Translations under genes and position numbers: made by a program | Shown: one piece after another, positions 30,684 to 55,001 of the stretch | Position numbering within the stretch: position 1 is the stretch's first letter | Layout: each line of letters begins with the position of its first letter | NCBI GenBank assembly: GCA_964603585.1 | Contig: CAZRVK010000001.1 | Span: 207,856-271,855 of the forward strand | Direction of reading: 5' to 3' | DNA from: an uncultured Planctomycetales bacterium | GTDB taxonomy: Bacteria; Omnitrophota; Gorgyraeia; Gygaellales; Profunditerraquicolaceae | DNA length: 64,000 bases | Notes under the pieces: generated by a model | Databases searched by the model: none | Told to the model about the DNA's origin: nothing | Seen by the model: only the letters and a program-made list of their open reading frames with translations

Positions 30684-30718
30684 TGCATTTATCCTGTTTT
30701 TTGCTATACTTCTAATCC

Positions 30719-33063: not shown

Positions 33064-33068
33064 AAATT

Positions 33069-33527: not shown

Positions 33528-33777
33528 TACTTGCTCCTTTACTATCTAAAAACTGCCTGGCTACCGCCACAGTCTCTTTTAATGTAGTAAGCTGCGCAAG
33601 TTTATCCTCGGGGATCGCGATCTTATATTTTTTCTCTATCGCCGCCATGATCTCTAAGGCCATCATCGAATCAACCCCCAGATCCTCAAAGAACCTGGCA
33701 TCAGGCGTAACCTCTGCCGGAGTTTTTTCAATGATCTCTGCGATGATCCCTCTTATCTCTTCCTCGATATTTTGCAT
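33520..33777 (-). CDS. acyl carrier protein (second copy)
   Basis: 85 aa. The phosphopantetheine motif DLGVDSMMALEI is present. Confidence 0.85.
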   Translation of the reverse strand: MQNIEEEIRGIIAEIIEKTPAEVTPDARFFEDLGVDSMMALEIMAAIEKKYKIAIPEDKLAQLTTLKETVAVARQFLDSKGASNA

Positions 33778-33787
33778 ACATACCCTC

Positions 33788-34534: not shown

Positions 34535-34536
34535 AT

Positions 34537-37491: not shown

Positions 37492-38384
37492 GGCTCGAAT
37501 TCTTTCGGCATTAATGAGGAAAACTCCATGAACTTTCCTGTCCGAGGATGAACGAACCCCAGATATTTCGCATGCAAAGCAAGTCTTGTGAATTTATTGT
37601 TCCGGCCGTATTTAGGGTCCCCCATGATCGGGTGCTTTAAATAAGCCAGATGCACCCTCAACTGATGCGTCCTTCCGGTAAAAGGTTCAAGCTCCACGAG
37701 AGTCATGCCATTTTTACGCATTAGCACCCGGTAAAAGGTCTTGGCATATTTGGTATTGGCGCCAAAACCTACCGCCATATCCTTGCGTTTATACGGATGA
37801 CGCCCGATAGGAAGCTCAATTATATTCTCGTTGAATTCCATTTCTCCGTTTACCAGCGCAACATATTTACGTTTAATGCTGTGCCGGGCAAACTGCTCCG
37901 CTAATGCAAGATGCGCAGGATTATTCTTTGCAATAACCAGTAATCCGGAAGTATCTTTATCCAGCCGGTGGACAATCCCCGGCCTTAAAGGATTGATGTC
38001 CGACAGATCCTTAAAATGGAAAAGGATAGCATTAACCAGGGTATGCGTGTCATTGCCTGGAGCAGGATGCACAACCAAACCAACGGGCTTATCGATAACC
38101 GCAAGATCCTGATCCTCGTAAACTATGACTAAGGGAATATCCTCCGCTTTTAACGATACCGGTTCTTTTTTTTTCACCTGCACCGAGACCTCATCGGAAG
38201 GTTTCACCTTATAATGGGCCTTGACCTTAACACAGTTTTTCACCGTAATCTGGCCCGTTAAGATCATTTTTTGTATAAACTCCCTTGAAAATCCCAGGCA
38301 GTTTAATTTGGCAAACTCCACGACAACCTGGTCAAGCCTTTTACCGGCATCATCCGAGGCGATTATAAAGTGATAATTTTCCAT
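37476..38384 (-). CDS. rluD: RluA-family 23S rRNA pseudouridine synthase (RluD-like)
   Basis: 302 aa. Has an S4 domain N-terminus and the catalytic HRLDKDTSGLLV motif. Confidence 0.8.
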   Translation of the reverse strand: MENYHFIIASDDAGKRLDQVVVEFAKLNCLGFSREFIQKMILTGQITVKNCVKVKAHYKVKPSDEVSVQVKKKEPVSLKAEDIPLVIVYEDQDLAVIDKPVGLVVHPAPGNDTHTLVNAILFHFKDLSDINPLRPGIVHRLDKDTSGLLVIAKNNPAHLALAEQFARHSIKRKYVALVNGEMEFNENIIELPIGRHPYKRKDMAVGFGANTKYAKTFYRVLMRKNGMTLVELEPFTGRTHQLRVHLAYLKHPIMGDPKYGRNNKFTRLALHAKYLGFVHPRTGKFMEFSSLMPKEFEPWRNI

Positions 38385-39082
38385 CAGGGATTATTTTTCC
38401 TTAAAAGCAAGATTTTTACCGATGCAACCGCAAAAACAAGGATACTGATTATCTGGAACAAGCTTAGATCCCAAAGGATATTTGGATTATCCTGGCGCCA
38501 GAATTCCATGAAAAACCTTTTCGTTGAGTATAGCATAAGGTAAGAATAGAAAATCGCACCAGCCCTATGGGGGTGCGACTGTAAGATCCTTAGAACAATA
38601 AAAATCAATATCAGGAAAAATGAGGAATAGATCTGGACGGGAATAAGGAACAACCCGTTTCCGAAACAACAACCATTCAAAAAACAGCCAAGCCGGCCAA
38701 AGGCCTGGGATAAAGCCAAAAACGGTGTGATCAAATCGAATATTTTATATACAGGAACTCCCTGGATCCTTAAATATGCAATACTGGAAATTATTCCCAA
38801 AAAAAGCCCTCCAAACCAGGATAAACCTCCATGATTAAACATAATGATCTCAAGCGGATTTTGGGAATAAAAACCAAAGTGTTCTACAACATAGAAGATC
38901 CTGGCGCCAAATACTCCGCTGACCAGGGCAACAAATGCAAAATTGAATACCAGGTCCCGGCTAAGTTTTTCCTTAACCGCCTCATTTCCCGCTAAATAAA
39001 TGCTGACCATAAAACCCAAAGCAAGCATCACACCATAAGAATATATCGTAAAAGGCCCGATTTTGCAGATTTCTGGATACAT
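38384..39082 (-). CDS. lgt: prolipoprotein diacylglyceryl transferase
   Basis: 232 aa. N-terminus FTIYSYGVMLALGF. Has the Lgt signature region around GARIFYV. Confidence 0.85.
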   Translation of the reverse strand: MYPEICKIGPFTIYSYGVMLALGFMVSIYLAGNEAVKEKLSRDLVFNFAFVALVSGVFGARIFYVVEHFGFYSQNPLEIIMFNHGGLSWFGGLFLGIISSIAYLRIQGVPVYKIFDLITPFLALSQAFGRLGCFLNGCCFGNGLFLIPVQIYSSFFLILIFIVLRILQSHPHRAGAIFYSYLMLYSTKRFFMEFWRQDNPNILWDLSLFQIISILVFAVASVKILLLRKNNP

Positions 39083-39092
39083 AATAAAACCT

Positions 39093-39551
39093 CTATCCTT
39101 TCTTTTGTTTAGCCTGCATAGACTCGGCAGTCATGATCGTCCACCCCAAAAGCAGCGCCCCTGCAGTAATAGCGCTATCTGCCACATTAAATACCGGCCA
39201 AAAACCAAAATCAATGAAATCTATCACATACCCCAGCCAGATGCGGTCAATAAGGTTGCCTAATCCTCCCGCCAGTATCAGGCTTAAGGAAATATTATAA
39301 ACAGCCGGTTCATCGCGCTGGCTTTTATTAAGATTGACACAAATTAATACCGTGGCAACAAGCGCAGCAAAAATAAAAAAAGGCACCTGATTCTTCAGTA
39401 TGCCGAATGCTGCTCCCCGGTTATGCACAAGCGTCAAAGACAAAACCCCCTTAACTACCGGTACCGGTTGCGCTAAAGTCAAATTCTGGCTGGCAAGAAA
39501 TTTAGTAGCTTGATCCAGGAAAATTATGAAAAGCGTAATAATAACTATCAT
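39093..39551 (-). CDS. lspA: lipoprotein signal peptidase II
   Basis: C-terminal block NLIDRIWLGYVIDFIDFGFWPVFNVADSAI. The start is trimmed to the internal Met (MIVIITLF) to remove a 37-bp overlap with the upstream gene. Confidence 0.85.
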   Translation of the reverse strand: MIVIITLFIIFLDQATKFLASQNLTLAQPVPVVKGVLSLTLVHNRGAAFGILKNQVPFFIFAALVATVLICVNLNKSQRDEPAVYNISLSLILAGGLGNLIDRIWLGYVIDFIDFGFWPVFNVADSAITAGALLLGWTIMTAESMQAKQKKG

Positions 39552-39568
39552 AAAAAGAAGGCTTTGGG

Positions 39569-40060
39569 TTAAGCCTTCTCCTTTTTTTCCTGACACTGGA
39601 CGCAAAGCCGGGCATAAGGAACGGCCTTCAGGCGGATTTTAGAGATGGATGCCTTACAATCCTCACACATACCATAACTGCCATCATCTATTTTCTTAAG
39701 CGCATCTTCAAGTTCATAGACAAATTGCCTGTCATTAGAAGCAAGCCCCAAAGAAAACTCCCGGTCGTAAGTATCGGTAGCAACATCAGCCATATGATAG
39801 GTATATCCGGAAATATCTCCCGAGGCTTCTTTTTGGGATTTTTTCAAAGTATCATCTGAAATATGTTTTATGTCATCCAGGATCGTATCCTTGATCTTTA
39901 TCAGCAGATTCTTAAATATCTCCAGGTCTTTTTTATTCAGTTTCTTGGCCAAACGAAAGGCCTTTTTTGCTGATTTCCTTGCTGCCGGTTTTTTCCCGGA
40001 GTTTTTCCTGGACCCGACGATCTTTGCTCTGGATTTATTCGGTTTCATTTTTGTTTTCAC
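39569..40060 (-). CDS. DksA/TraR-family C4 zinc-finger protein with a Lys-rich N-terminal extension
   Basis: 163 aa. C-terminal CEDCKASIS...CVQCQ zinc finger. The N-terminal 40 aa are highly basic. Confidence 0.7.
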   Translation of the reverse strand: MKTKMKPNKSRAKIVGSRKNSGKKPAARKSAKKAFRLAKKLNKKDLEIFKNLLIKIKDTILDDIKHISDDTLKKSQKEASGDISGYTYHMADVATDTYDREFSLGLASNDRQFVYELEDALKKIDDGSYGMCEDCKASISKIRLKAVPYARLCVQCQEKKEKA

Positions 40061-40061
40061 T

Positions 40062-42884
40062 TTATTTCCCCCCTATGGCTTTTAAACAGCTGTCACAGAT
40101 TAAAGGATGAGCAGGAGAACTTCCCAGGACCCGGTGATAATTCCAACAGCGCACACATTTTTCCCCTTCTGCCTTATTCGCCTCTAACGCAATATCACTG
40201 AAAACTGCGGACTTAGAAAGATTTGGGGGGAAATTATCTTCTTTTTTGATTTCCACCTGCGAGACTTTAAAAATCTCGCAAAGCTGATCCTCTAAGCCCG
40301 TTAAATATTTATACCGGATTTGATCATTTGTCAACAATTTTATTCTGGCATCGAACGAACTGCCGATCAAGGAAGACGTACGCTTATCTTCCAGGACCCG
40401 GGCCACATCAGGCACAAGTTTTATGATCTCATCTATGCCTTGGTCGGCGAACTCAAAATCGCCGGATTCCGGCCAATCGGCAAGATGCACACTGCCCGGT
40501 CTTACGTCCTGGTGGGCGCCAGGCAAATTACTCCATACCTCCTCTGCACTGAAAACTAATATCGGAGCCATGATACGGGTCAAGGCACTTAGCAGCCTAT
40601 AGAGCGCGGTCTGTGCCGAACGCCTTTCAAGTGATGAGGCCCCGCCGGTATAAAGCCGGCCTTTGATCATATCCAGATAATACATGGATAATTTCTCATT
40701 ACAAAAATCATAGATCGCCTTATACGCCTTATGGAAACAAAATGCCTCGTATGCCGAGCCAACATCCAGGATCAGCCTTTGCATCTTATGCAATATCCAT
40801 TTATCCAGTTTCTTCAAGTCTTCGGAAGCGACCATATCGGTTAAAGGATCAAAATCGTAAAGATTGCTTAAAATAAACCTACAGGTATTCCGGATCTTAC
40901 GATATGCCTCTGACAGACGCGTAAGTATCTCTTTCGATATACGAATATCCTCATTATAATCGCTGGAAGCGACCCACATCCTTAGAATATCCGCGCCGTA
41001 ATCCTTTGTAATGTCAAAAGGCGAGATCACATTGCCTACGGACTTTGACATTTTCCTGCCCTGGCCATCAACCACAAAACCATGTGTAAGAACATTTAAA
41101 AAAGGCGGATGATGATCAATGCACACAGAAGGAATAAGCGAAGACTGGAACCATCCGCGATGCTGATCAGAACCTTCCAGATATAGTTGTGCGGGGCTCC
41201 CCCCCAACTCTTTTCTTTTCTTTAACACCGCTTGGCTACTTACGCCGGAATCAAACCAAACGTCAAGGATATCCGAGCCTTTCGAGAATGTCCTGCCTTT
41301 ATTGCAAACAGGACAAACTAAATCCGCAGGCAGAAAATCTTTAATCCCCCTTAAAAACCAGCAATCCGAGCCTTCCTTTGCGATAAAGGCGGCAAATTTA
41401 CCGGTTACCCGTTCATCGAAGAATTCCTCTTTGCAGTTTTCACAAACAAGCGCCGGTACAGGAACGCCCCAATACCTCTGACGGGAAAGACACCAATCAG
41501 GCCGCGATTCCACCATTGCCGAGATCCTCTCCCGGCCTGTTTGCGGGATCCAGTTAACCTCATCTGCTATTGCCTTAAGTAACCTCTGGCGCAATTTATA
41601 TTTTTCTGAAGGCTTGCATCCTTCATCATTCTCGTCATGGTCCAGCATCAAGAACCACTGTTTAGTTGCCCTAAATATGATCGGATTCTTACATCGCCAG
41701 CAATGAGGATACGAATGGGATATCTTGGATTCTAAAAGTAAAGCACCAACGCCTTGCAGCTTATCGATGATCAGCCGATTCGCCTCATAAACATTTATAC
41801 CGGCAAATTCACCGGCAGTCTGGTCGAATTTGCCTCTTGAATCAACCGGCATAACAATATCTAAATTATATTTCAGTCCAGTCTGATAATCTTCCGCGCC
41901 ATGACCGGGTGCGGTATGCACTAGGCCCGAGCCATCATCACGAGAAACATAATCGGCTAAAACCACACGGCCTTTTCTTAAACCAAAAGGATGATGATAA
42001 ACCAGCCCCTGAAGGAGATTCCCGGGGACCTCTTTTAGAAGATCGAATCTTTCGATCCCCGAACTGGATAAAACACTGTTCAATAAATCATTGGCAATGA
42101 TCAAATTCCCTCTATCCGTTTTAACACAGGAATAGGCCATATCCGGATGTACCGCCACCGCAACATTAGCGATCAATGTCCATGGGGTAGTCGTCCAGAT
42201 CAATAAATATGTGTCATCCGGATAATCCTTATGCTGATCAAGCTTGAACTTTACGAATACCGATGGGGAGGTATGATCCTCATATTCTACCTCCGCTTCC
42301 GCCAGCGCAGTTTCACATTTAAAACACCAGTTAACGGGTTTGAGCCCGCGCTTAATGTAACCCTTTTTGAATAATTCATTAAAAGAAGAAACGATCGCCT
42401 CTTCATAATCCCGGTTTAATGTCAAATACGGGTTATCCCAGTCCGCAAACACCCCTAACCGCTTAAATTGCTCTTTTTGGCTGGCGACATAATTGACTGC
42501 GTAATCATAGGCTTTTTTCCTGAAATCCACCTGTGAGATCTGGTACTTGCTGATCTTAAGCTCCTTGAACAACTGATGCTCGATAGGCAGCCCATGGCAA
42601 TCCCACCCCGGCACATAAGGAGAATCAAAACCCCGCATAAACCTGAATTTTACAATTATATCCTTGAGGATTTTATTCAAAGCATGCCCAATATGAATAT
42701 CCCCGTTAGCATAAGGCGGGCCATCATGCAACACATACTTGGGCCTGCCCAAAGATTTCTTTCTGATCAGTTGATATATCCCCTGTTCATCCCAACCTTT
42801 CAAAAACAACGGTTCACGCCTGGGCAAATCCGCCTTCATCGGAAAATCGGTTTTAGGCAAATTCAAGGTATCTTTATATTCCAT
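40062..42884 (-). CDS. ileS: isoleucine--tRNA ligase
   Basis: 940 aa. Has HIGHAL and KMSKS motifs and a C-terminal zinc-binding CxxC...CxxC. Confidence 0.95.
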
Positions 42885-42922
42885 AGTTATATTTGATCTG
42901 TTTAAACAACTTCGATAGGATA

Positions 42923-43783
42923 TTATGTAATGTATTTACCGATAATTACCTTTAAATCTTTTTTAATCTTCTTTGAGATCAGTTTTCTATCCGTAACAAT
43001 AGCATACTTAAGCGTATCCTTGCATGAACAGACGCGGTGATCAGGGAGATTCTTTACGATCGCCATGATCATTCTCTTGGAATTCTCAACGTTTTTATGC
43101 AAATTGCTCATGACCATTTCAAGCGTCACACTCTCATGCTGGGGATGCCAGCAATCATAATCAGTCACTGCCGCCAGAGTGGAATAACAAATCTCTGCTT
43201 CCCGGGCAAGCTTAGCCTCCGACATATTGGTCATCCCGATCACATCCATCCCCCAGGAGCGGTAAAGATTAGACTCTGCTAAAGTAGAAAACGCCGGGCC
43301 CTCCATATTCAAATAAGTCCCTTTATTATGTATGCTTAAGCCCAGGGATTTACCCGAAGAATAAATAACCTTAGCCAGGTCATTACAAACAGGATGCGCA
43401 AAAACAATATGTGCGACAATGCCGTTATCAAAAAATGTCATCTCCCTGGCATTATTCGTCCGATCCACAAATTGGTCAACTACCACAAAATCCAGAGGTT
43501 TGATATCTTCTCTAAGGCTGCCGCAGGCAGTAACCGAGATTATCCTTTCAACCCCCAGGGCCTTCATCCCGAAAATATTAGCGCGATAATTTATCTTACT
43601 GGGACAAATTCTGTGGCCAAGGTCATGGCGCGGTAAAAATACCACTTCCTTGCCCTCTAAGACCCCGGAAACAAATTTTCCCGAAGGCTTGCCAAACGGC
43701 GTGCCCATCGAGATCTTTTTGATCTTTTTTAAGCCGTCAATCCGGTATAAGCCGCTGCCGCCGATTATCCCAATACGTCCCAT
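42923..43783 (-). CDS. mtnP: S-methyl-5'-thioadenosine phosphorylase / purine nucleoside phosphorylase family
   Basis: PNP/MTAP family. The start is trimmed to [12 protein letters not shown]. Confidence 0.8.
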
Positions 43784-43787
43784 AAAC

Positions 43788-44648
43788 TTACTCCTTTTTG
43801 GAAAGTTCTTCCGCACGCTTTTTAGCCGCTTTTATCGCCTCGCTCAAAGAACCGGTCTCTCGCAATGCCGTTAACCCGGCATCTGTCGTTCCACCTTTGG
43901 AAGTAACCTGCTTCTCTATTTCTTCGGAAGACGAATTCCCTAAACGCGCAAAACTAAAGCAAGTATCGGTTGTCGTCTCCGATAAATACTCTGCGTCGCT
44001 TAAACTAAATCCGGCTTCCAGAGCGCCTTTCTTAAGTGCAGGGGCAAAATATGCGCGGGCAAATTCATTTACGGCAGCAGTATTTTTTATATCTATCCCC
44101 CGGACTTGAAGCAAATAAAAGAAATATCCCGGGCCGCTGCCGGAAACCGCGGTTGCCGCATCCATCATACCCTCGTCTATTTGTTTTACTTCTCCGATAT
44201 ATTCAAATAAATCAAGTGTAAAATCCATATCCTCATCAGTCGCAGATGCGCCCTGTGATATACAGGTAACACTACTGCCGATCCGGGCGCCTATATTAGG
44301 CATGACCCGAACCACCCGCACTACTCCTAAACGTTTCCGGATATATTCTGTAGTTATTCCTGCGGCGATGGAGATGAACAATTTATCCAATAGATGTTTA
44401 TAGCCTTTTATCTCATCTAAAACAGCATCAAAATCCTGGGGCTTGACCGCGATAACCACCGCCTGAACTTGATCACATAAAGCAATGATACTATCCGCCG
44501 TTTTTACGCCTGTTGCTCCGGCAAGGCGGCATTTTTCTTTATCAAAAACAATAACCTCATAATAGGACTTTAACTGATTTGCGATTGCCGAGCCCATATT
44601 GCCAAAACCGATTATCCCGATTATTTTTTCCATAATTATATCCTGCAT
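43788..44648 (-). CDS. proC: pyrroline-5-carboxylate reductase
   Basis: 286 aa. Has the NADP-binding IGIIGFGNMGSAI and the ProC C-terminal dimerisation region. Confidence 0.85.
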   Translation of the reverse strand: MQDIIMEKIIGIIGFGNMGSAIANQLKSYYEVIVFDKEKCRLAGATGVKTADSIIALCDQVQAVVIAVKPQDFDAVLDEIKGYKHLLDKLFISIAAGITTEYIRKRLGVVRVVRVMPNIGARIGSSVTCISQGASATDEDMDFTLDLFEYIGEVKQIDEGMMDAATAVSGSGPGYFFYLLQVRGIDIKNTAAVNEFARAYFAPALKKGALEAGFSLSDAEYLSETTTDTCFSFARLGNSSSEEIEKQVTSKGGTTDAGLTALRETGSLSEAIKAAKKRAEELSKKE

Positions 44649-44653
44649 AAAGG

Positions 44654-45352
44654 CTATTCAAACAAAGCCCTGCCGAGCCGGACCATTTGCGAACCTTCTT
44701 CTATCGCCACTTCAAAATCACCAGTCATTCCCATCGATAAAATTAGCCCCCCACCGCCAGTCTCCGACACAGAAAAACTAACCATCTGCCTGCGATAAAG
44801 CTCATCCCGTAATTTACGCAGCTGGCGGAAATAAGGCCGGGCATTCTCCGGTTCATCTACTAAAGGAGCGATCGTCATCAGCCCCCGGAGGCGAATATTC
44901 TTTAATCCGAGTATTTGCTTAAAGTTAATTAAAAGATCCTCCGCCGATAAACCATGTTTTGTCGGTTCCGGGGAAGTCTTCACCTCCAGGAGAATTTCCT
45001 GGACCTTATCAACCTTTTCGGCTTCCTTATTGATTGCCTGGGCTAAACGCAAACTATCCACAGACTGGATCAAATCAAATATTCTGACCGCATCTTTAAC
45101 CTTATTGGTTTGTAAATGGCCGATCAAATGCCAGGATACTCTTTCGGAACCTAACTCCGCATATTTAGCTGCCGCCTCCTGGACCCTGTTCTCGCCGATT
45201 TGAGTGATCCCTCCAGCAAGTAGTTCCTTCACTTCAATGACCTGGCGGTTTTTAGTCACTCCAACCAGCATTATCTCCTGCGCCTGACGATTAGCCCTCG
45301 AACATGCACTGGCAATACGTTCTTTTACCTGGACAATATTATCTTTAATCAT
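44654..45352 (-). CDS. yggS: YggS-family PLP homeostasis protein
   Basis: 232 aa. Alanine-racemase N-terminal-like fold. The PLP Lys lies in VGVTKN. Confidence 0.85.
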   Translation of the reverse strand: MIKDNIVQVKERIASACSRANRQAQEIMLVGVTKNRQVIEVKELLAGGITQIGENRVQEAAAKYAELGSERVSWHLIGHLQTNKVKDAVRIFDLIQSVDSLRLAQAINKEAEKVDKVQEILLEVKTSPEPTKHGLSAEDLLINFKQILGLKNIRLRGLMTIAPLVDEPENARPYFRQLRKLRDELYRRQMVSFSVSETGGGGLILSMGMTGDFEVAIEEGSQMVRLGRALFE

Positions 45353-45420
45353 GGTCTTGGATTAGTATATTATACACAAGAAAAATACAGGGTCAATCTA
45401 AAAGAAACGAGGGGTACGGG

Positions 45421-46701
45421 TTAGAAATATTCATGATATAGTGACTTCAATTTATCCATGACCTTAAAGACAGGATTATGCGAAGAATTAGGATTAACTG
45501 TAAACCTCGGCTGTTCTAAAGACATCGCCTTACAAAATATCCCGCAGGCGGTAAGATACGCAAGTGATTTCCCGGAAGAAATTATCTCATGATTATGTAC
45601 CAATGCCGCGATCCGGGGATTAGTTATGCGCCCAAGGATGACCGGCACTCCAAGATGTGCCTCGATCACCTCCAGGAAACCTTCTAAAAGGACAGACCTT
45701 CCACAAACGAGGAAATTGCTTATCTGCCGTATCGAGACAACCTCTGCTACTTTATCTTTGATCCTTTGAGCGATTAATTTGGCTTCTTTTGTAACTACAT
45801 TTATGACCACGCTCTCTTTTATCGGCTTATAAATACTGTCTTTTTTAATCAATATCTCCTTATCCCCTTCCGGGTCCACAATGTCCTGGATCCGGCCATA
45901 CGATTTCTTCACCTCTTCGGCCATTTCAAAAGTGATTTTTAGTTCCTTTGACAATGCTTCTGTCAGATTGTCTCCACCTAATGGCAGGATCAATGCCTCC
46001 TTAAAAATATCTGCCTCAAAAACCAGGATCTCCGTAGAATCTTTTCCGATATCACAAAGCACACTGACCCCTTGTTTCGGGCGCTCTAAAGAAACAGCTT
46101 CATAGGTGGCAAAAGGGGAAAAAAACACCTCTTTAGCCTCAAAACCTGCCTGATTAATCGTGCGTATAAGCGTTTGCAGCAACGAAAGCTTCGCGCACAC
46201 AAGATACAGGTCCACCTCAATACGATGGCTATATAACCCCAAAGGATTGGCAATCCCGGTTTGAGAATCAATCGTATAATTTAAAGGCACCTGGGTAATT
46301 ATCTCCTCTTCAAGGCTTGAGCCCAATATCCGCGCCTGCCGGTTCACCTCTTCTATATCAGAGGCTGTAATGACTTTGTTGCCTCTTTCGGCTAAAGGTA
46401 TAATTGCCCGGCTATGCCGAGTGATAATGTCCTGCCCGGAAAGGTTGGTATAAACATATTTGATATTCAAGCCTGATTTAGACTTTAATTTCTTTAACAC
46501 CTTCTCAATGGAAGCAGATAATTCAATAGCATCAATTATCACCCCACGTTTCATTCCAGAAGAAGGAGCATCTTCAAAGAACATCTCGACAATATTGTTT
46601 TTATTCACCTTGGCCGCCACAGCAGATATCTTGCTTGCGCTGATATCTACAGCGCAAATACACTCTTTCTGAAATATTCCCAAATTAAGCCTCCATTTCA
46701 T
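45421..46701 (-). CDS. ftsA: cell division protein FtsA
   Basis: 426 aa. Actin-like ATPase fold. Has a C-terminal amphipathic helix. Lies in the dcw position after ftsQ. Confidence 0.85.
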   Translation of the reverse strand: MKWRLNLGIFQKECICAVDISASKISAVAAKVNKNNIVEMFFEDAPSSGMKRGVIIDAIELSASIEKVLKKLKSKSGLNIKYVYTNLSGQDIITRHSRAIIPLAERGNKVITASDIEEVNRQARILGSSLEEEIITQVPLNYTIDSQTGIANPLGLYSHRIEVDLYLVCAKLSLLQTLIRTINQAGFEAKEVFFSPFATYEAVSLERPKQGVSVLCDIGKDSTEILVFEADIFKEALILPLGGDNLTEALSKELKITFEMAEEVKKSYGRIQDIVDPEGDKEILIKKDSIYKPIKESVVINVVTKEAKLIAQRIKDKVAEVVSIRQISNFLVCGRSVLLEGFLEVIEAHLGVPVILGRITNPRIAALVHNHEIISSGKSLAYLTACGIFCKAMSLEQPRFTVNPNSSHNPVFKVMDKLKSLYHEYF

Positions 46702-46716
46702 ATAAAGGATTGTTCT

Positions 46717-47487
46717 TTAATTTTTCCTGGCCTTTGTCCTATCAGGATCAGCGAACTTAATCACCGGTTCTTTGAAACGCAGATCGATATATTTGATATT
46801 AAGGCTGTCGGCTTTAGCCTGCCATAATACACTGCCCAGGATATTTATCTTGTCCTTAATACTGTCCTGGCCGAGCCGTACCTCCAAAAGCAGGGATGGA
46901 TCCTGTAACGAAAGATAAAGGATCAAGTTCCTGTTATGTGCCAGGTCGATCCTGTTTATCCTGTACTCTTGTAAACTTTTGTTTAAGGAAAATTCCTTAA
47001 TAATGTTTAACGCCTCTTCAAGCGGCTTTAAGGGGTATTTCTTTCCGGCTTTCGGGCCAAAGATTATTGAATCAAAACCGGTCAGTCTCGGCACTTCACG
47101 GACATCCTCTACGGAGCCGATGTTGAACAAAACGGCATCCTTATCGACATAAAATTCACGATACAACTTCACACGGGCCACCGGAACGCGCCGGCTGAAA
47201 TAAATAAATAATTTATCCGGCAGGATCCTGATCAATCTGATCTGGCGGTAATCAGGGTATTTTGCCAAAAGATACCCAGAAACCTTGGACAGGTTAACCG
47301 AGAATATGTTACATCCCCTCAAAGAGGAAAGCTCCTGGAGATGCTCGTTAACGACAATATTCTTTACGGTAAAATAACCGGAATGCTTAAGGCTTTTCCC
47401 TAAAGACATGCAAACCAAAACAACCACACAGACCAACATTATAATAACTACCGGCTTAATCTGCGATATCAGTTTTTGCTTTTTCAT
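46717..47487 (-). CDS. ftsQ: cell division protein FtsQ (POTRA domain)
   Basis: 256 aa. Single N-terminal TM helix. Sits between ddl and ftsA. Confidence 0.7.
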   Translation of the reverse strand: MKKQKLISQIKPVVIIMLVCVVVLVCMSLGKSLKHSGYFTVKNIVVNEHLQELSSLRGCNIFSVNLSKVSGYLLAKYPDYRQIRLIRILPDKLFIYFSRRVPVARVKLYREFYVDKDAVLFNIGSVEDVREVPRLTGFDSIIFGPKAGKKYPLKPLEEALNIIKEFSLNKSLQEYRINRIDLAHNRNLILYLSLQDPSLLLEVRLGQDSIKDKINILGSVLWQAKADSLNIKYIDLRFKEPVIKFADPDRTKARKN

Positions 47488-48424
47488 ATGCCAGTTCGAT
47501 TAGTTTTATACAAAGTTCATGGAATTCAATACCGGCTACCTTCGCTGCCTTGGGCAAAAGGCTGGTTGGCGTAAAACCCGGTATAGAGTTCAATTCAAGA
47601 ACATAGGCGGTATTGTTATGGCCTAAAATAAAATCGACACGAGAACACCCAAAACAGCCTAAGAGTTTATGCACTAAAACCGCCGTTGACTTAACACTAT
47701 TTGAGACCCCTTTTTCCAGGTCAGCCGGAACTATATACTGCGTCTTGCCTGCATGGTATTTCGCGTCATAATCGAAAAACCTGTTCTTTGTAACTATTTC
47801 CACAACCGGCAGAGCCAAGTTATCCAAAATGCCTACAGTAAGCTCACGCCCGGGAATATATTGCTCGATAATAATACGGGAATCGAACTTAAAAGCTGAC
47901 TCGATCGCGCCTTTCAACTGCGTGATCCTATCTACTATCGACAATCCTATACTTGACCCATGCGCCGCCGGTTTGACCACCAAGGGCAACTTGGCTGATG
48001 ACACGAATTTCTTGTTAAAAATAAAGGTGCCCCTTTCAAGCACCTTATATTCCGGTACCGGCAAACCATAAACTTCCAGGATCCTGCGTGAAGCCACCTT
48101 ATCCATTGCCAGCTTGCTGGATAAAGCTCCCGAACCGGTATAAGGGATCCCCAGGGAATCCAATATCTGTTGAACCATGCCATCTTCACCAAAATGGCCG
48201 TGCAACGCCAAAAAGGCACAATCGATCTTATGGAAACGGATCAATTTCATGTTTTCTGCTTCATCCTCGGTAGTAATGTCTATCGGCACAACATCCAGAT
48301 GAAGAAGCTTCAAACTGTCATATACGGCCTTACCGGACTTTAAAGAAACATCCCTTTCCGTGGAAGGCCCTCCCATCAAAACCCCGATCCTGCCAAACCT
48401 GGTTTTATCCTGCGTTACTGCCAT
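47456..48424 (-). CDS. ddl: D-alanine--D-alanine ligase
   Basis: 322 aa. ATP-grasp fold. N-terminus GRIGVLMGGPSTEREVSLKSG. Confidence 0.9.
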   Translation of the reverse strand: MAVTQDKTRFGRIGVLMGGPSTERDVSLKSGKAVYDSLKLLHLDVVPIDITTEDEAENMKLIRFHKIDCAFLALHGHFGEDGMVQQILDSLGIPYTGSGALSSKLAMDKVASRRILEVYGLPVPEYKVLERGTFIFNKKFVSSAKLPLVVKPAAHGSSIGLSIVDRITQLKGAIESAFKFDSRIIIEQYIPGRELTVGILDNLALPVVEIVTKNRFFDYDAKYHAGKTQYIVPADLEKGVSNSVKSTAVLVHKLLGCFGCSRVDFILGHNNTAYVLELNSIPGFTPTSLLPKAAKVAGIEFHELCIKLIELAYEKAKTDIAD

Positions 48425-48466: not shown

Positions 48467-49351
48467 TTACTGCCAAAACTTAATTTCTGTTTTCAGATCA
48501 ACCTTGAATTTTTTCCGGACCATTCTTTGAACTAATTTTATCAATTCAAGCACATCCCGGGAAGTTGCGTTTCCAAGATTCACGATAAAATTGGCATGTT
48601 TCGAAGATACGGCGGCATCATGCACCTTAAACCCCTTAAGCCCGCAAAGATCGATCAACCTACCGGCGGAATCACTCTGGGGATTCTTAAAAATACAGCC
48701 TGCCGAAGGCATACTCCAATCCTGGCCAATACGCCTGCGGGTCAAATAGCCTTTTATCTTCTCCCGGCTGGCTTTTACATCAACCTTAAACAATTTCAAC
48801 CGTGCGCTTAAGATTATATACCGGGAAAGATTTGACACCCGATACCCGAACTTAAGATCCTTACGGCCTAAACACTTGATATTTCCCGAGCGGTCAATTA
48901 CCTTAATATCCTCTACTAAACTCCCAATACCTGTGCCGCTTTGTCCGGCGTTCATTAAAAGCGCCCCGCCGACTGTACCGGGAATGCCAGTAAGGAATTC
49001 CGTCCCTCCTAAACCAAGGCTTAACGCAAAATTAATGAGCCGTACAAGCAGGCATCCTGCGCCCGCTTCAACAAAACCATCCCTAAATTTTATACTGCGA
49101 AAATAAAAAGAATCCAGCCGTATTACCGCATGGCGTAATCCGGCATCACTTACCAAAAGATTGCTTCCCGCCCCAAGGATTAAGAAAGGTATTTTATCCC
49201 TTTTTAAGGCATTAAGCAATATTTTTAGTTGCGCGGTATCCTTCGGCTGAAAAAAATAACGGCATGGCCCTCCGATCCTGAAAGTGGTATGCCTTTTCAG
49301 CGGCTCATTGAACCTTACTTTTATTTTTAAGTTCTTCCACAAGCTCATCAC
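48467..49351 (-). CDS. murB: UDP-N-acetylenolpyruvoylglucosamine reductase
   Basis: 294 aa. Has the FAD-binding TTFRIGGP and the GAGSNLL motif. Confidence 0.85.
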   Translation of the reverse strand: MMSLWKNLKIKVRFNEPLKRHTTFRIGGPCRYFFQPKDTAQLKILLNALKRDKIPFLILGAGSNLLVSDAGLRHAVIRLDSFYFRSIKFRDGFVEAGAGCLLVRLINFALSLGLGGTEFLTGIPGTVGGALLMNAGQSGTGIGSLVEDIKVIDRSGNIKCLGRKDLKFGYRVSNLSRYIILSARLKLFKVDVKASREKIKGYLTRRRIGQDWSMPSAGCIFKNPQSDSAGRLIDLCGLKGFKVHDAAVSSKHANFIVNLGNATSRDVLELIKLVQRMVRKKFKVDLKTEIKFWQ

Positions 49352-50681
49352 AAATCCTTATAATATCCCCTGCCCCAAGGGTTATGATCAAATCGCCAGG
49401 ACGCATAATACCGTTTAGATGACTAATGATCTCATCCTTGGGCACAAAAAACACATCTTTATCCTTGTCCAATTCCTTGATCCTGCGCACTAACAGCTGG
49501 GAATTGATACCCTCTATAGGAAGCTCACTGGCTGGATAAATATCGCTGATCAAAAGATAATCCGCCTGACTGAAACACTTGGCGAAATCCTCAAGTAAGA
49601 TCTGGGTACGACTATAGCGATGCGGCTGGAATACTGCCACAACCCTCTGCCTTTTTAAATGGCTTACGGCAGAAAGCGTTGCCCTTATTTCCGTAGGATG
49701 ATGCGCGTAATCATCAATTACCAAATAATCCGCATCACGGAATTTAACTTCGATCCTGCGTCCAGCCCCCTTGTAACTCGATAAGGTCTTATTAATAGCT
49801 TCAAAACCTAACCCCAATTCCAGGCCGATAGCTACAACAGAAAGAGCATTAGAAACATTATGCATCCCACCCAAAGCAAGACAAAACCTGCCGATATGAT
49901 CCTTCCTGTAAAAACAATCGAACTGTGTAGTCAATCCCGAAATCCGGCAATCCTTGGCATAGATATCGGCATTATCATGCAAACCAAACAAAACATGCCT
50001 GCCTTTATAGCCTTTCAGGATACTAATCAGGTTCTCATCATCGGCACAGCAAAAAACACAACCCGAAGGTAAAGTCTTATTCAAAAAATCACGATAAGCA
50101 GCAACAAGGTTATCGAAATCCTTATAATAATCAAGGTGTTCATGATCAATATTAGTGATAATGGAATATTTCGGAGTATAGTATAAGAACGATCCATCAG
50201 ACTCATCTGCTTCTGCGATAAAGAATTCACCCTTGCCCATGCAGGCATTGTTCTTAATGTTGCCTAAAATCCCCCCGATTACCGCGGTAGGGTAAAATCC
50301 GGCATCCATAAGCAGACAGGAAACCAAAGAAGTAGTAGTGGTCTTACCATGGCTGCCACTGACCGTGATCACAGACTTATCCTGCATTAACCAGGCCAAA
50401 GCTTCCGCGCGCTTTAACAAGACAAGCCCAAGCCTTTTTGCCTCTAAAAGTTCCGGGTTATCTTGTTTGATCGCGCTCGAATAAACAACTGAAGGAGCCC
50501 CCTGGATATTTGAAGGAGCGTGGCCAATAACGATTTGCGCGCCCTGTTTCACCAGTTCATCTGTAGTAAGGCCGGCTTTTAGATCAGACCCGCTTACTTT
50601 TATCCCCCTGGATAAAAAAAGCTGGGCTATACCGCTCATTCCGATCCCGCCAATACCGATAAAATGTATATGTTTATTCAT
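49305..50681 (-). CDS. murC: UDP-N-acetylmuramate--L-alanine ligase
   Basis: 458 aa. N-terminus IHFIGIGGIGMSGIA. P-loop GSHGKTTTT. Confidence 0.9.
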   Translation of the reverse strand: MNKHIHFIGIGGIGMSGIAQLFLSRGIKVSGSDLKAGLTTDELVKQGAQIVIGHAPSNIQGAPSVVYSSAIKQDNPELLEAKRLGLVLLKRAEALAWLMQDKSVITVSGSHGKTTTTSLVSCLLMDAGFYPTAVIGGILGNIKNNACMGKGEFFIAEADESDGSFLYYTPKYSIITNIDHEHLDYYKDFDNLVAAYRDFLNKTLPSGCVFCCADDENLISILKGYKGRHVLFGLHDNADIYAKDCRISGLTTQFDCFYRKDHIGRFCLALGGMHNVSNALSVVAIGLELGLGFEAINKTLSSYKGAGRRIEVKFRDADYLVIDDYAHHPTEIRATLSAVSHLKRQRVVAVFQPHRYSRTQILLEDFAKCFSQADYLLISDIYPASELPIEGINSQLLVRRIKELDKDKDVFFVPKDEIISHLNGIMRPGDLIITLGAGDIIRICDELVEELKNKSKVQ

Positions 50682-51462
50682 TTATACCCAAACATCTTTG
50701 CCAGGCCCGGTCCAATTCCTGAATATCCGTAAAATTATATATCATGGCCATTGCCCGGGCAATATCCTGCTTATCCCTTAGATACTGGCAAAAAGCAACA
50801 AATTTCTCTTTCCCAAAATCCTTGATCAAATATCCCACAATGCTTACCGCTTGCGCATATAATAAATTTATTTCGGAGTTATTGGATGTACGCCATTTAC
50901 TTTGATCATTCATTTCTGCCAAAGGAATGATCCTGCCTTGCATAACCGCATCCCTTAAAATATTCTCTGTGCCACCGCCACTTGAAACCTGCTGATAACC
51001 GGCCACCCCCTCCTCAAGCCAAACCGGGATTGCCGGATTATTAAAACCAACCAGCTCCCGGAAAATTATATGCCCCATTTCATGCGGCAGGACCGCATCA
51101 AAAAAGCCTTCCGCCTGCACATAAGTCATGATCATCTTCTCACTAACACGGGCGCATCCTGCCGACCAGGAGATCTGTCCGGTAGCCTCCTGATAGGAAA
51201 CAGCATTATCATAAATATAAATCCGAGCGCGCTTGTCCCACAGCCAAAAATCAAACCTGCGCAGGCCTAAATTGTCCGCGATACGGTCATAATAATTTTC
51301 CGCATGGTCAATGACCTTGTTTATAAAAGCTTCTTCTGCCCCCTGATAACTAATGACAAAATGCGTGCTTTTTGACTCTTTCCACTTTTGTGTTTCAGCT
51401 AAAAGACTTCCCTGACAAACCAGTGATAACCCGGCAACAGCTAAAATGACCCCTTTAGTCAT
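50674..51462 (-). CDS. secreted zinc metallopeptidase-like protein (HEMGH motif, MA-clan-like) inserted between murG and murC
   Basis: 262 aa. A signal peptide is present. HEMGH is followed about 20 aa later by EEG, a gluzincin-type third ligand candidate. Confidence 0.5.
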   Translation of the reverse strand: MTKGVILAVAGLSLVCQGSLLAETQKWKESKSTHFVISYQGAEEAFINKVIDHAENYYDRIADNLGLRRFDFWLWDKRARIYIYDNAVSYQEATGQISWSAGCARVSEKMIMTYVQAEGFFDAVLPHEMGHIIFRELVGFNNPAIPVWLEEGVAGYQQVSSGGGTENILRDAVMQGRIIPLAEMNDQSKWRTSNNSEINLLYAQAVSIVGYLIKDFGKEKFVAFCQYLRDKQDIARAMAMIYNFTDIQELDRAWQRCLGINE

Positions 51463-52553
51463 GATAGATCCTTCACTAACGATACAACCGCATCCGCCAG
51501 AAGCCCGGGGGAATCGAGTAAAAATCCTCCGGAATAAGAATCCCGCATTTTCCTTAGATTTTCCGGATGATCCACTAAAGGTTCTATAACCTTCTCTAAG
51601 ATCAACGGATTTAGATCCTTGTCATTAATTACCGTAGCACATCCTTTTCTTTGTAAAACTCTGGCATTAGCCGATTGATGCTGATAAGCATATGGATACG
51701 GCACCAATACTGCAGGAATCTTAAAATTAATCACTTCAGTGATCGTAGCCGCCCCGGCGCGGCTAACAATTAGATCACAAGCGCTATAAGCATACTGCAT
51801 AGGATCCAAAAAAGCAAATAACTTAACCGCCACCCCGGAATTCTTATAAACGGAATTTAAGAACTCATAATCCTTCTTTCCGCTCAAATGGATCACCTGA
51901 ATATTTGATTTTCCCCGGAACCTGGATAAAAAACCTGCAAACTCCATATTGATACTATGACTCCCTTGGCTTCCTCCGGCCACCAGAATAGTGAATTTAT
52001 CCTGTGCCAGCCCAAAATAATCCAGAGCCTGGGGTTTACCCACAAAAGATAATTCCCGGCGTATAGGATTACCGGTAAGAATGATCTTGCGGCGATCAAC
52101 ATGAAAATACGCACTGCTTTCCTGAAAACTGACCGCCACCTTGTCGGTAATCTTTGAAAGCAGCTTGTTAGCCCGCCCTGGGATGACATTTTGCTCATGG
52201 ATCAAGGTCTTGATCCGTAAAAGCCAGGCAAAGAAAATGACCGGGAGAGAAGAAAAGCTACCGAAACCAACTACGGCGTCGGGCTTGAATTTCAGTAAAA
52301 GCAAAAAGGCTTGGCACGACCCGGTAATGGAGTCTAACATGGCTTTTAAATTCTTCGAATCGAGTTTCAAGGAAAAAGAAAGGATCGTCAGGTATTTTAC
52401 CGGACAACTTACTGCCACCACCCCCTTTATGGCATTGGCTGGCAGAATAAGTAACACCTCGGTCCCATAACATTTTTGTTTTAAGGATTCGATAAAACTC
52501 AAGGCAGGGAAAATATGCCCTCCGCTGGATCCGGAAACCACCACAATTCTCAC
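51459..52553 (-). CDS. murG: undecaprenyldiphospho-muramoylpentapeptide beta-N-acetylglucosaminyltransferase
   Basis: 364 aa. N-terminus MRIVVVSGSSGGHIFPAL. GT28 family. Confidence 0.9.
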   Translation of the reverse strand: MRIVVVSGSSGGHIFPALSFIESLKQKCYGTEVLLILPANAIKGVVAVSCPVKYLTILSFSLKLDSKNLKAMLDSITGSCQAFLLLLKFKPDAVVGFGSFSSLPVIFFAWLLRIKTLIHEQNVIPGRANKLLSKITDKVAVSFQESSAYFHVDRRKIILTGNPIRRELSFVGKPQALDYFGLAQDKFTILVAGGSQGSHSINMEFAGFLSRFRGKSNIQVIHLSGKKDYEFLNSVYKNSGVAVKLFAFLDPMQYAYSACDLIVSRAGAATITEVINFKIPAVLVPYPYAYQHQSANARVLQRKGCATVINDKDLNPLILEKVIEPLVDHPENLRKMRDSYSGGFLLDSPGLLADAVVSLVKDLS

Positions 52554-53644
52554 GGGTATTCTCCTGTCCTGGCAATGTTAAGGATTATCCCTACGCTTAC
52601 CATATCAAAAATAAAAGATGACCCCCCATAACTTATAAAGGGCAAAGGCAGCCCTTTTGTAGGGAACAATCCACAGGAAACACCTATATTCACCATCGCC
52701 TTAAAACAGATCATAAAAACCAGCCCGCTTGCAAGAAAATATCCGAACTTATCCTGAATGTTCTTGATTATTTTTACGGTCTGTTGAATAAAAGCCACAA
52801 ACAAAATGATCACGCAAACCGTCCCGATAAGCCCCAGCTCCTCACCGATTATGGAAAAAATGAAATCTGTATGTGCTGCCGGCAAATAAAATAACTTCTG
52901 TTTCGAATGTCCCAGGCCTAAACCAAAAATCCCCCCGGAACCAAGTGAAATTTGAGATTGTATGATCTGAAAACCGCTCCCGCGGGGATCCACCCAAGGG
53001 TCCAGAAACGCCATAATCCTGGCTCGGCGATAAGGGACTTGGAACACCAGGATCCATAAGAAAGGCACGCTGGAAAGTATGGTATAGCACAAATACTGCC
53101 ACTTTATACCGGCGATAAAAAGCATCATAAACACTACCACCCCCAAAGACACGGTTGTCCCTAAGTCCGGCTGCAGCATGATCAATAACGCAGTCAAGCC
53201 TAAAACACACATCGGAGGTAAAAACCCCCGCCAAAACGACTTCAATAAATTCTCCTTACGGGCAATGAAATCCGCAATATAAATGATCACCGCCAGATTT
53301 GCCAGTTCGGAAGGCTGAAAACTGATAAATTTAAACCTGAACCATCTTCTGGCACCGCTCACCTCCCTGCCTAAGCCGGGGATCAAGACCAAAACCAGGA
53401 GCACCAAAGAAACGATTAAAAGAGGCTTCGCGAATTTGGAGAATTTGCGGTAATCCATAAGCATTATTCCAAGAGTAAGCAAAGCCCCGATCAAAATAAA
53501 AACCAGATGCCGTTTCAAAAAGAAAAAACTATCCTGGTACCTTTCCCAGGCATAAATACTGGAAGCACTGTAAAGCATGACAATTCCTATACATATCAGC
53601 ATGAAGGTAATAACTAATAAATTTATCCTGATTTTACGGATCAT
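52550..53644 (-). CDS. ftsW: SEDS-family peptidoglycan glycosyltransferase FtsW
   Basis: 364 aa polytopic membrane protein. Lies in the dcw position between murD and murG. Confidence 0.85.
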   Translation of the reverse strand: MIRKIRINLLVITFMLICIGIVMLYSASSIYAWERYQDSFFFLKRHLVFILIGALLTLGIMLMDYRKFSKFAKPLLIVSLVLLVLVLIPGLGREVSGARRWFRFKFISFQPSELANLAVIIYIADFIARKENLLKSFWRGFLPPMCVLGLTALLIMLQPDLGTTVSLGVVVFMMLFIAGIKWQYLCYTILSSVPFLWILVFQVPYRRARIMAFLDPWVDPRGSGFQIIQSQISLGSGGIFGLGLGHSKQKLFYLPAAHTDFIFSIIGEELGLIGTVCVIILFVAFIQQTVKIIKNIQDKFGYFLASGLVFMICFKAMVNIGVSCGLFPTKGLPLPFISYGGSSFIFDMVSVGIILNIARTGEYP

Positions 53645-53720: not shown

Positions 53721-55001
53721 TTAATCAAATTTACCGGTATTTTTACTGATCAGGCGGTTAACCTCATCCTTAAACACTCTCCCCCGGTGTTCATAATCAG
53801 TAAACATATCGTAACTTGAACACATGGGAGAAAGTAATACGCAATCACCGGGTTTTGCCGCATAAAAAGCCTTGGCGACTGCCTCCTCCATGGTTAGAGC
53901 TTCTTCAAAAGGCAGGTTACCGGAAAACACCGCTTTAATATCTTTCCTGGCCTCCCCGATCAATATCGCCAATTTCACTTTCCGGCGTGCCAGATCAAGC
54001 ATTATATTATAATCGACGCCTTTATGCCGGCCTCCGGCGATCAAAATCACCGGGTTAGGAATAGTTTCTAAAGCCAGCATGCATGACTCCACTGTAGTTG
54101 CTTTAGAATCATTGATAAATTTGACCTGATTGACTTGGCCAACATATTCAAGACGGTGTTCGATACCCTTAAAGTCGCGAAAAACTTTACGGCAGATATC
54201 CTGGGATATGCCTAAAATCTCTCCAACCTGCAGGACTGCGGACTGATTGGGATTCATTCCGTTGCCTTTCGAGAATAAAATAACTTTGGCCTTTGCCAAA
54301 GAAACCAGTTCTTTTAAGACCTTGTCATCATCGTTTAAAAGCAGATAATCAGAGCCATCCTGATTGATAAATACCTTTTTTTTTGCCTCCAAATACTCCT
54401 GCATATTCTTATAGCGGTCAAGATGGTTACGGCTGAAATTCAGGATCAAGGAAATCTTAGGCTTAAAAAAAGAAATGTTCTCCAATTGAAAGGAACTAAC
54501 CTCTAAAGCCACAAAATCATCATCTTTCATATTAGCAACTTCGGCAGTAAAGGGATCGCCGATATTACCGCAAACAAATACCCTTTTACCAGAAGCTTCA
54601 AGTATCTTGCCAATCAAGGTTGTCACGGTAGTCTTTCCATTGGAACCAGTAACCGCAATCACCGTGGCCGGGCATAATCTCCAGGCCACTTCTATTTCAC
54701 TGACTACCGGAATCTTATACCTACGCGCCCAAATGACTGCTTGTGAATCCTCTCCTACCCCGGGAGAAATCACCACCATATCCCGGCCATTAATAAACTC
54801 TTGGCTATGCCTGCCTAACTCACATTCAATATCCGTTGATACGAGTTGTGCCCTATTCTTTTGTGTTTTCTCATTATCACAAACATCCGTCACACTGACC
54901 ATGGCCCCCAGTCTGTTTAACAAATTAGCACAAGCGACCCCGCTGCGCGCCAGACCTATTATCGTAACCTTTTTGCCTTTGAAATACTCGATGTTCCTCA
55001 T
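53721..55001 (-). CDS. murD: UDP-N-acetylmuramoylalanine--D-glutamate ligase
   Basis: 426 aa. N-terminus KKVTIIGLARSGVA. P-loop GSNGKTT. Confidence 0.9.
   Translation of the reverse strand: MRNIEYFKGKKVTIIGLARSGVACANLLNRLGAMVSVTDVCDNEKTQKNRAQLVSTDIECELGRHSQEFINGRDMVVISPGVGEDSQAVIWARRYKIPVVSEIEVAWRLCPATVIAVTGSNGKTTVTTLIGKILEASGKRVFVCGNIGDPFTAEVANMKDDDFVALEVSSFQLENISFFKPKISLILNFSRNHLDRYKNMQEYLEAKKKVFINQDGSDYLLLNDDDKVLKELVSLAKAKVILFSKGNGMNPNQSAVLQVGEILGISQDICRKVFRDFKGIEHRLEYVGQVNQVKFINDSKATTVESCMLALETIPNPVILIAGGRHKGVDYNIMLDLARRKVKLAILIGEARKDIKAVFSGNLPFEEALTMEEAVAKAFYAAKPGDCVLLSPMCSSYDMFTDYEHRGRVFKDEVNRLISKNTGKFD

Follow-up and report, generated by a model that had tools for sequence, protein, structure and literature searches.

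In most bacteria, E. coli and B. subtilis among them, the division and cell wall (dcw) gene cluster ends in ftsQ-ftsA-ftsZ. Division without FtsZ has so far been studied in Chlamydiota and Planctomycetota, two phyla of the Planctomycetes-Verrucomicrobia-Chlamydiae (PVC) superphylum. Both at least partly retain peptidoglycan-synthesis and fts genes, but FtsB and, with few exceptions, FtsA are gone as well, and the literature calls their dcw clusters fragmented or eroded. Here we describe a dcw cluster from the same superphylum that ends with ftsA and has no ftsZ. It lies on a 64-kb stretch of contig CAZRVK010000001.1 (positions 207,856 to 271,855; "the window" below means this whole stretch). 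In contrast to Chlamydiota and Planctomycetota, the cluster of the window is intact and collinear, and it keeps an FtsA that is under purifying selection.

The window comes from Candidatus Omnitrophota (see below), and the missing gene fits the published record of that phylum. In Supplementary Note 1 of Seymour et al. 2023 (PMC10066038), ftsZ is absent phylum-wide from the Omnitrophota species representatives of a 421-genome set; the one ftsZ that did turn up shares 89% identity with an archaeal protein and is either a contaminant or a recent transfer. Pende et al. 2021 (PMC8178401) place Omnitrophica among the FtsZ-less PVC phyla, and their Supplementary Data 2 lists FtsA without FtsZ in three Omnitrophica genomes, neither protein in a fourth, and FtsZ only in OLB16. 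In Rivas-Marin et al. 2016, too, OLB16 is the only Omnitrophica genome with FtsZ, and Supplementary Note 2 of Seymour et al. 2023 assigns OLB16, which encodes ftsZ, to a separate phylum. The claims of FtsZ in Omnitrophica made in PVC reviews rest on this misclassified genome, which resolves the confusion on this point in the PVC literature. Henriques et al. 2025 call the dcw genes 'highly conserved' in Omnitrophota reference proteomes, and the supplements of that study do not list Omnitrophota; the main texts of two recent Omnitrophota papers mention neither FtsZ nor FtsA. The absence of ftsZ from the phylum and, implicitly, the retention of ftsA are already known, since the surveys of Seymour et al. 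and Pende et al. report the same state that we see here. What those surveys do not describe is the gene neighbourhood, the selection on FtsA and the changes at its FtsZ-docking site.

The ftsZ-less end of the cluster

On its minus strand the window carries a complete, tightly packed dcw cluster that runs collinearly from mraZ to ftsA (Table 1; assignments are from NCBIfam and Pfam models with curated cutoffs). Its genes and their order are those of the canonical cluster, with two differences: a gene for a secreted Peptidase_MA_2 protein has been added between murG and murC, and the terminal ftsZ is missing. In the place of ftsZ there is a 68-bp spacer of clean sequence, too short to hold any ftsZ remnant, and then yggS. 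An earlier reading made from the letters of the window (the sequence-only reading) had described just this junction, with ftsA followed directly by yggS in an otherwise canonical cluster, and the profile scores and FtsZ searches confirm it. That reading also held that yggS normally lies downstream of ftsZ. This is typical of Firmicutes, Actinobacteria and Cyanobacteria but is not general to bacteria.

No FtsZ was found in the window by any route. With E. coli and B. subtilis FtsZ as queries, tblastn against the 64 kb gave a best E-value of 0.30. The tubulin signature G[GA]G[TS]G[STAG]G is absent from all frames, and each open reading frame (ORF) of at least 110 aa that is plausibly a gene has another identity, judged by eye and with Pfam. 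We also ran a hidden Markov model (HMM) of FtsZ, made from 3 sequences, with all filters off (--max) on the stop-to-stop ORFs of at least 50 aa in the window and in 82 related loci (5,515 ORFs in all); the best E-value was 0.28, and nothing tubulin-like appeared even at E-values up to 10. The statement that the window holds no tubulin-like ORF is borne out by these searches. As positive controls, two loci from outside Omnitrophota, one Armatimonadota-type and one from Salinivirgaceae, have ftsZ directly after ftsA; in control locus L085 the gene in that place is 59% identical to B. subtilis FtsZ (E = 2.5e-79).

The 82 related loci (864 kb in total) came from genome and metagenome scans with FtsA, and their FtsAs are 48–59% identical to that of the window. 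None has an FtsZ within 10 kb of ftsA, and ftsA has the same ftsZ-less end in 82/82. Among the 72 informative loci, those with at least 400 bp downstream of ftsA, yggS follows within 600 bp in 52 (median gap 116 bp) and after an insertion in 5, and 15 have other genes downstream or a short flank. Upstream, ftsQ is collinear with ftsA in 78 of the 82, and the order ftsW-murG-(peptidase)-murC-murB-ddl-ftsQ-ftsA-yggS-proC-mtnP-ileS-dksA-lspA-lgt-rluD is conserved throughout. Nor does a Tubulin/FtsZ_C gene stand beside ftsA in L083, a locus from an NCBI metagenome-assembled genome (MAG), or in the distant Omnitrophota-type loci L084 (27% FtsA identity), L086 and L087. Altogether, the ftsZ-less junction occurs on about 90 contigs that were assembled independently and come from many samples; all are Omnitrophota-type, and some are 200–650 kb long. 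It is a lineage-wide state, not a local rearrangement.

Because the junction recurs on so many independent contigs, it is not the product of chance or misassembly. That the missing ftsZ is an artefact of assembly or binning has no specific support beyond the fact that the related data are mostly metagenome assemblies, and with the same ftsZ-less junction on all of these contigs and a clean spacer in the window, we regard the chance of it as negligible.

Several loci have ORFs between ftsA and yggS (L003, L028, L065, L081/L082) or alternative genes downstream of ftsA (L039, L043, L049, L052). These were considered as divergent FtsZs and rejected, as they give no HMM signal and have other identities: a secreted protein, a pilin-like protein, Fic and mobile genes, an HD-GYP-like protein, a glycosyltransferase and a polyprenyl synthase. 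The junction itself is an insertion hot spot in the relatives. The inserts lie at L003 2062–3099, L028 1979–2569, L065 3971–5758 and L081/L082 11276–12703, and they comprise genes for a secreted protein of 345 aa and a pilin-like protein, genes of the Fic type and others that look mobile, and, on the opposite strand, a gene for an HD-GYP-like protein of 475 aa.

The taxonomic placement rests on sequence comparison. All organism-named homologues of the window FtsA, at 27–53% identity, are from Candidatus Omnitrophota/Omnitrophica; the nearest protein among the best 120 matches listed is 94% identical and lies on a 2.4-kb contig. The window also shares a 15-gene synteny with the Omnitrophota MAG loci L002 and L083. 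By these measures it comes from Candidatus Omnitrophota, one of the phyla of the PVC superphylum, and the relevance that the sequence-only reading had seen in the junction, should the organism be of a PVC-type or candidate phylum, holds. One relative, L001 (CAZJFL010000006.1), is titled 'uncultured Planctomycetales bacterium'. Since 15 of its genes are collinear with Omnitrophota loci and its FtsA is of the Omnitrophota type, this label is probably a misclassification.

The FtsZ-docking surface and fold of FtsA

FtsA binds the C-terminal tail of FtsZ through residues on a helix of its subdomain 2B, which we take to be R301 and E304 in T. maritima (R300 and E303 in E. coli). These residues are reported to form salt bridges to the C-terminal peptide of FtsZ, and E. 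coli FtsA R300E is reportedly an FtsZ-binding mutant. All six solved FtsAs and the FtsA of B. subtilis keep the Arg/Glu pair. The FtsA of the window has E306 and L309 in the two columns and lacks the pair, as does every one of 121 close-family FtsAs (0/121). Among these 121, the Glu column holds mostly L or S (E in 3), and the Arg column holds K in 78, E, S and G in 10 each, Q in 6 and R in 4.

As a wider control, we searched the window FtsA against 1.84 billion representative proteins and obtained 150 FtsAs of 24–59% identity, of which 139 are near full length and fall into two groups. The 100 sequences with an E/D/Q-Y-F tail, whose named members are Omnitrophota, keep the pair in 3 cases. 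The 39 with other tails, whose named members are Armatimonadota and Salinivirgaceae, keep it in 36 (R in 38, E in 37). The difference between 3/100 and 36/39 gives p = 3e-26 in Fisher's exact test, a value that is descriptive only, as the sequences are phylogenetically non-independent. Where control FtsAs keep the pair, ftsZ comes directly after ftsA. Three Omnitrophota-type FtsAs also retain the pair (P0184, P0197, P0225) and were considered as members of ftsZ-keeping lineages; this was rejected, with no ftsZ after ftsA in L086 and L087, while L088 ends too soon to show what follows.

An unbiased scan for columns conserved in at least 80% of the other FtsAs and in less than 35% of the Omnitrophota type returned 14 positions. 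The top three were D244 (98% against 5%), R301 (98% against 8%) and E304 (95% against 19%), all in subdomain 2B, and the list also includes positions of the phosphate-2 loop. The sole column conserved in the Omnitrophota type and not elsewhere is the Tyr of the E-Y-F tail. These comparisons indicate that the FtsZ-docking surface has lost constraint specifically in the phylum without FtsZ.

Loss of ftsZ predicts such decay and relocation does not; the decay therefore favours true loss. If a canonical ftsZ had moved elsewhere in the genome, outside the 64 kb seen here, division would be ordinary. Some lineages do have fragmented dcw clusters, and Henriques et al. 2025 place Omnitrophota among the phyla that conserve dcw genes. 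Relocation would nevertheless leave unexplained why the Arg/Glu pair was lost phylum-wide while FtsZ was still a partner. It also sits poorly with the about 90 loci that show no ftsZ within 10 kb of ftsA, with the species representatives of Seymour et al. 2023, where the only ftsZ is an archaeal-like contaminant, and with Pende et al. 2021, where FtsZ is missing from all four Omnitrophica genomes apart from OLB16. We consider relocation very improbable.

A different partner might instead have taken the place of FtsZ: a tubulin-superfamily protein so divergent that marker HMMs miss it, docking on a remodelled 2B surface. The FtsZ of Verrucomicrobia is described as among the most divergent in bacteria, HMM and marker searches underlie the published absence, and Omnitrophota FtsA retains strong conservation in parts of 2B, such as a K-E-I-L...Y-K-P-I-K-Q hairpin. 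The IIA-IIB longitudinal contacts of FtsA filaments can, however, account for that hairpin. A tubulin of this kind has not been reported, and the unfiltered search of the window and 864 kb of related DNA found none. This replacement is in our view improbable.

The window FtsA itself has the marks of a working FtsA. It is encoded after ftsQ within the cluster and matches the FtsA family model TIGR01174 at 178.0 bits, a narrow pass of the 175.85 cutoff; the domain models are matched with more room (PF14450, 56.9 against 31.8; PF02491, SHS2_FTSA, 54.2 against 25.4). Between close relatives, the ratio of nonsynonymous to synonymous substitution rates (dN/dS) of ftsA is 0.04–0.18, similar to that of ddl and murC, so that purifying selection acts on FtsA as strongly as on MurC and Ddl. 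An AlphaFold2 model of the protein (predicted local distance difference test score, pLDDT, 76.9; predicted template modelling score 0.75) has an actin-like fold in which the SHS2_FTSA domain, subdomain 1C (residues 89–168), replaces subdomain 1B of actin. Its top 18 matches in the PDB are all FtsA, with E-values from 6e-28 (7q6f) to 7e-21; PilM follows at 1e-18 and MreB at 1e-14. Subdomain 1C is also the most conserved in the family (0.83, against 0.69–0.74 elsewhere). Residues 127–156 (about 46234–46323), which form part of 1C, are modelled with pLDDT below 50, though they are the family's most conserved stretch (GSSLEEEII...NPLGLYSHR).

At the C terminus, an amphipathic helix is predicted over the last 16 residues (410–425) and finishes in an invariant E-Y-F. 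Its hydrophobic moment is 0.48, against 0.23 ± 0.11 in shuffles, of which 2.2% reach 0.48; the family mean is 0.56 and the E. coli value 0.61. This conserved helix should bind the membrane. A comparison with the FtsZ-interaction and membrane-targeting regions of canonical FtsA, which the sequence-only reading had proposed, thus finds the docking pair of 2B lost and the amphipathic helix kept. Taken together, the selection, the predicted fold, the conserved 1C and the amphipathic tail clearly point to a functional FtsA.

Four solved FtsAs, those of T. maritima, E. coli, Vibrio maritimus and S. aureus (PDB 4A2A, 7Q6D, 7Q6F and 3WQT), have the fold, the 1C (SHS2) domain and the C-terminal amphipathic helix in common with the window protein. 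Identity to them is 15–19%, and the window FtsA aligns with the solved γ-proteobacterial and S. aureus proteins only up to about residue 270–286, the start of subdomain 2B. It differs from the four in lacking the conserved Arg/Glu pair and D244, in ending in the invariant E-Y-F, and in its phosphate-2 loop, where residues 217–224 read DIG-K/S-D-x-T in the family (DIG-S-D-I-T in the window) instead of DIGGGT. The adenosine motif at residues 333–335 is altered as well, with C/V-G-R-S and a near-invariant Arg in place of the T-G-G-A found elsewhere. These changed nucleotide motifs may affect ATP binding or hydrolysis.

FtsA could also have been kept for a job outside cytokinesis, PilM-like or otherwise related to the envelope, while the cell divides by different machinery, as in Planctomycetota. 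The narrow pass of the family cutoff and the remodelled phosphate-2 loop would agree with this, and in Planctopirus the remaining dcw genes are dispensable. Yet in each sampled lineage ftsA still stands behind ftsQ in an intact, tight cluster, the most conserved part of its product is the subdomain that recruits late division proteins in model bacteria, and the best structural match to FtsA has an E-value ten orders of magnitude lower than that to PilM. A job outside division is therefore improbable too.

Genes of the cluster and their surroundings

The genes of the window that bear on the cluster are collected in Table 1. Most cluster genes pass their curated cutoffs; the exceptions are the FtsL-like ORF and the penicillin-binding protein (PBP) in the ftsI position. 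The former has an N-terminal transmembrane helix followed by a coiled-coil-like segment and found no family match in profile searches. The best NCBIfam matches of the latter are transpeptidases of the SpoVD, PBP2 and FtsI types, all under the equivalog cutoffs.

Table 1 Features of the dcw region in the window, in order of transcription, followed by other gene sets
Feature	Position	Strand	Evidence or remark
mraZ, first dcw gene	62006-62443	-	TIGR00242, 141.8 bits (cutoff 98.35)
rsmH (mraW)	61083-61976	-	TIGR00006, 322.6 bits (cutoff 154.3)
FtsL-like small bitopic protein, 124 aa	60708-61082	-	Assigned by position (between rsmH and ftsI) and architecture
Class B PBP, ftsI position	58982-60682	-	Assigned by position and architecture
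murE	57528-58982	-	NF001126, 590.9 (cutoff 373)
murF	56137-57540	-	TIGR01143, 396.5 (cutoff 288.6)
mraY	55045-56133	-	TIGR00445, 390.5 (cutoff 192)
murD	53721-55001	-	TIGR01087, 387.8 (cutoff 212)
ftsW	52550-53644	-	TIGR02614, 417.4 (cutoff 337.5)
murG	51459-52553	-	TIGR01133, 255 (cutoff 250.25)
Secreted HExxH metallopeptidase (Peptidase_MA_2), between murG and murC	50674-51462	-	PF13485, E = 3e-19
murC	49305-50681	-	TIGR01082, 500.2 (cutoff 335.1)
murB	48467-49351	-	NF010480, 323.6 (cutoff 259)
ddl	47456-48424	-	NF002378, 356.9 (cutoff 243)
ftsQ, between ddl and ftsA	46717-47487	-	PF03799 FtsQ_DivIB_C, 24.7 bits (cutoff 21)
ftsA, last division gene, 426 aa	45421-46701	-	TIGR01174, PF14450, PF02491
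ftsA-yggS spacer, 68 bp	45353-45420	-	Expected site of ftsZ
Sigma-70-like match in the spacer	45396-45369	-	TTGACC-16-TATAAT, 11/12 consensus positions
yggS, YggS/YlmE family pyridoxal phosphate-binding protein, 232 aa	44654-45352	-	TIGR00044, 178.5 bits (cutoff 106.25), residues 3-231
proC-like	43788-44648	-	P5CR_dimer and F420_oxidored domains; TIGR00112, 185.5 (cutoff 196.75)
mtnP	42923-43816	-	Conserved downstream block
ileS	40062-42884	-	Conserved downstream block
dksA/traR-type zinc finger protein gene	39569-40060	-	Conserved downstream block
lspA	39093-39605	-	Conserved downstream block
Whole post-ftsA block, yggS to rluD	37476-45352		Also in related loci
Second type II fatty-acid/polyketide-like set	26122-35772		
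Housekeeping plsX-fabH-fabD-fabG-fabF	14532-19876		

The added peptidase gene also stands between murG and murC in 23 of 39 related loci and in distant Omnitrophota loci (L083 5285–6061, L084 6105–6896, L087 1267–2073). From this spread among close and distant lineages it is, by sequence, an old and conserved member of the cluster, and its product may be a septal peptidoglycan hydrolase.

The gene after yggS was named proC by the sequence-only reading, and its pyrroline-5-carboxylate reductase domains agree with that name, with a TIGR00112 score just under the cutoff. The spacer between ftsA and yggS holds a sigma-70-like sequence, a match to the consensus and nothing further, which suggests that yggS may be transcribed separately from the dcw genes. 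No terminator was found between ftsA and yggS, where this was the only promoter-like match, and the counts do not exceed those in shuffled sequence.

Downstream of ftsA, the window and related loci share a block that runs from yggS through ileS, a DksA/TraR-like gene, lspA and lgt to rluD. It resembles the region downstream of ftsZ in B. subtilis, which we take to be ylmE(yggS)-sepF-ylmG-ylmH-divIVA-ileS-ylyA-lspA-rluD. Compared with that region, the block of the window is without ftsZ, sepF and divIVA.

Two further irregularities were seen in relatives. In L018 (1835–2143), yggS is cut by an internal deletion to an ORF of 102 aa and is probably a pseudogene; in L084 (8244–9206), murB is missing between murC and ddl, and a DUF559 gene is inserted before the peptidase gene.

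Elsewhere in the window lies a second type II fatty-acid/polyketide-like gene set, made up of two ketosynthases, a FabA/Z-like dehydratase and a short-chain dehydrogenase/reductase-type ketoreductase. Next to these stand genes for an amine-oxidase/phytoene-desaturase-like flavoprotein, an alpha/beta hydrolase, a FemAB-like acyltransferase, a DegT aminotransferase and two EamA half-transporters. The set is distinct from the housekeeping fatty-acid genes and may make a specialised lipid.

Probable division without FtsZ in Omnitrophota

The sequence-only reading left it between loss and relocation of ftsZ from the end of a canonical cluster. Our results support a missing terminal gene, and given the phylum-wide absence reported by Seymour et al. 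2023, it is most likely that ftsZ was lost early in the evolution of Omnitrophota rather than moved. We think it probable that the whole of the following holds: the Omnitrophota dcw cluster is without ftsZ, FtsA has been kept with its docking pair lost, and FtsA serves as an FtsZ-independent scaffold.

Several points weigh against this account. In the source genome, the absence of FtsZ beyond the 64 kb is taken from the literature and from relatives. The published absence comes from marker and HMM searches of mostly incomplete MAGs, which could miss a very divergent tubulin-family protein, and some PVC papers state or imply that FtsZ or the dcw genes are conserved in Omnitrophica/Omnitrophota (the earlier of these statements trace to OLB16). 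Within FtsA, the R301 column is still basic (K or R) in 68% of the close family, and the three Omnitrophota-type proteins named above keep both residues without an adjacent ftsZ. The docking analysis depends on the assignment of R301 and E304 as contacts of the FtsZ tail, and of R300E as a binding mutant, and the scaffold mechanism is one that we infer. All four alternatives combined (relocation, a divergent tubulin, a job outside division and an artefact) still seem to us unlikely.

In model bacteria, the 1C domain recruits late division proteins, and Nierhaus et al. describe FtsA filaments with IIA-IIB longitudinal contacts as well as 1C-mediated double filaments that bind FtsN. On these grounds, the likeliest mechanism is that membrane-bound FtsA filaments act without a Z-ring in Omnitrophota. 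On the cytoplasmic side they would then form the scaffold to which FtsQ/FtsL, FtsW and the class B PBP are recruited and on which these are activated for septal peptidoglycan synthesis. A stronger form of this proposal, which we put forward tentatively and with somewhat more doubt than belief, is that Omnitrophota divide by an FtsA-led, FtsZ-independent divisome in which membrane-bound FtsA filaments, released from FtsZ and with their docking site decayed, are the primary cytoskeletal organiser of septal peptidoglycan synthesis.

Few otherwise complete divisomes have FtsA but not FtsZ. Chlamydiota and Planctomycetota lack FtsZ and, with few exceptions, FtsA; Omnitrophota are a different natural experiment, with a complete collinear cluster that encodes FtsA, FtsQ, FtsW and a class B PBP and from which FtsZ is missing. 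That the docking residues were lost in step with FtsZ is sequence evidence, independent of the searches for the gene, that the absence is real. It suggests a role of FtsA that does not depend on FtsZ, and the decay of the motif gives a testable handle on that role. If the proposal is true, FtsA would be sufficient as a division scaffold in a natural lineage, and Omnitrophota would represent a third route to division without FtsZ, mechanistically distinct from those of Chlamydiota and Planctomycetota.

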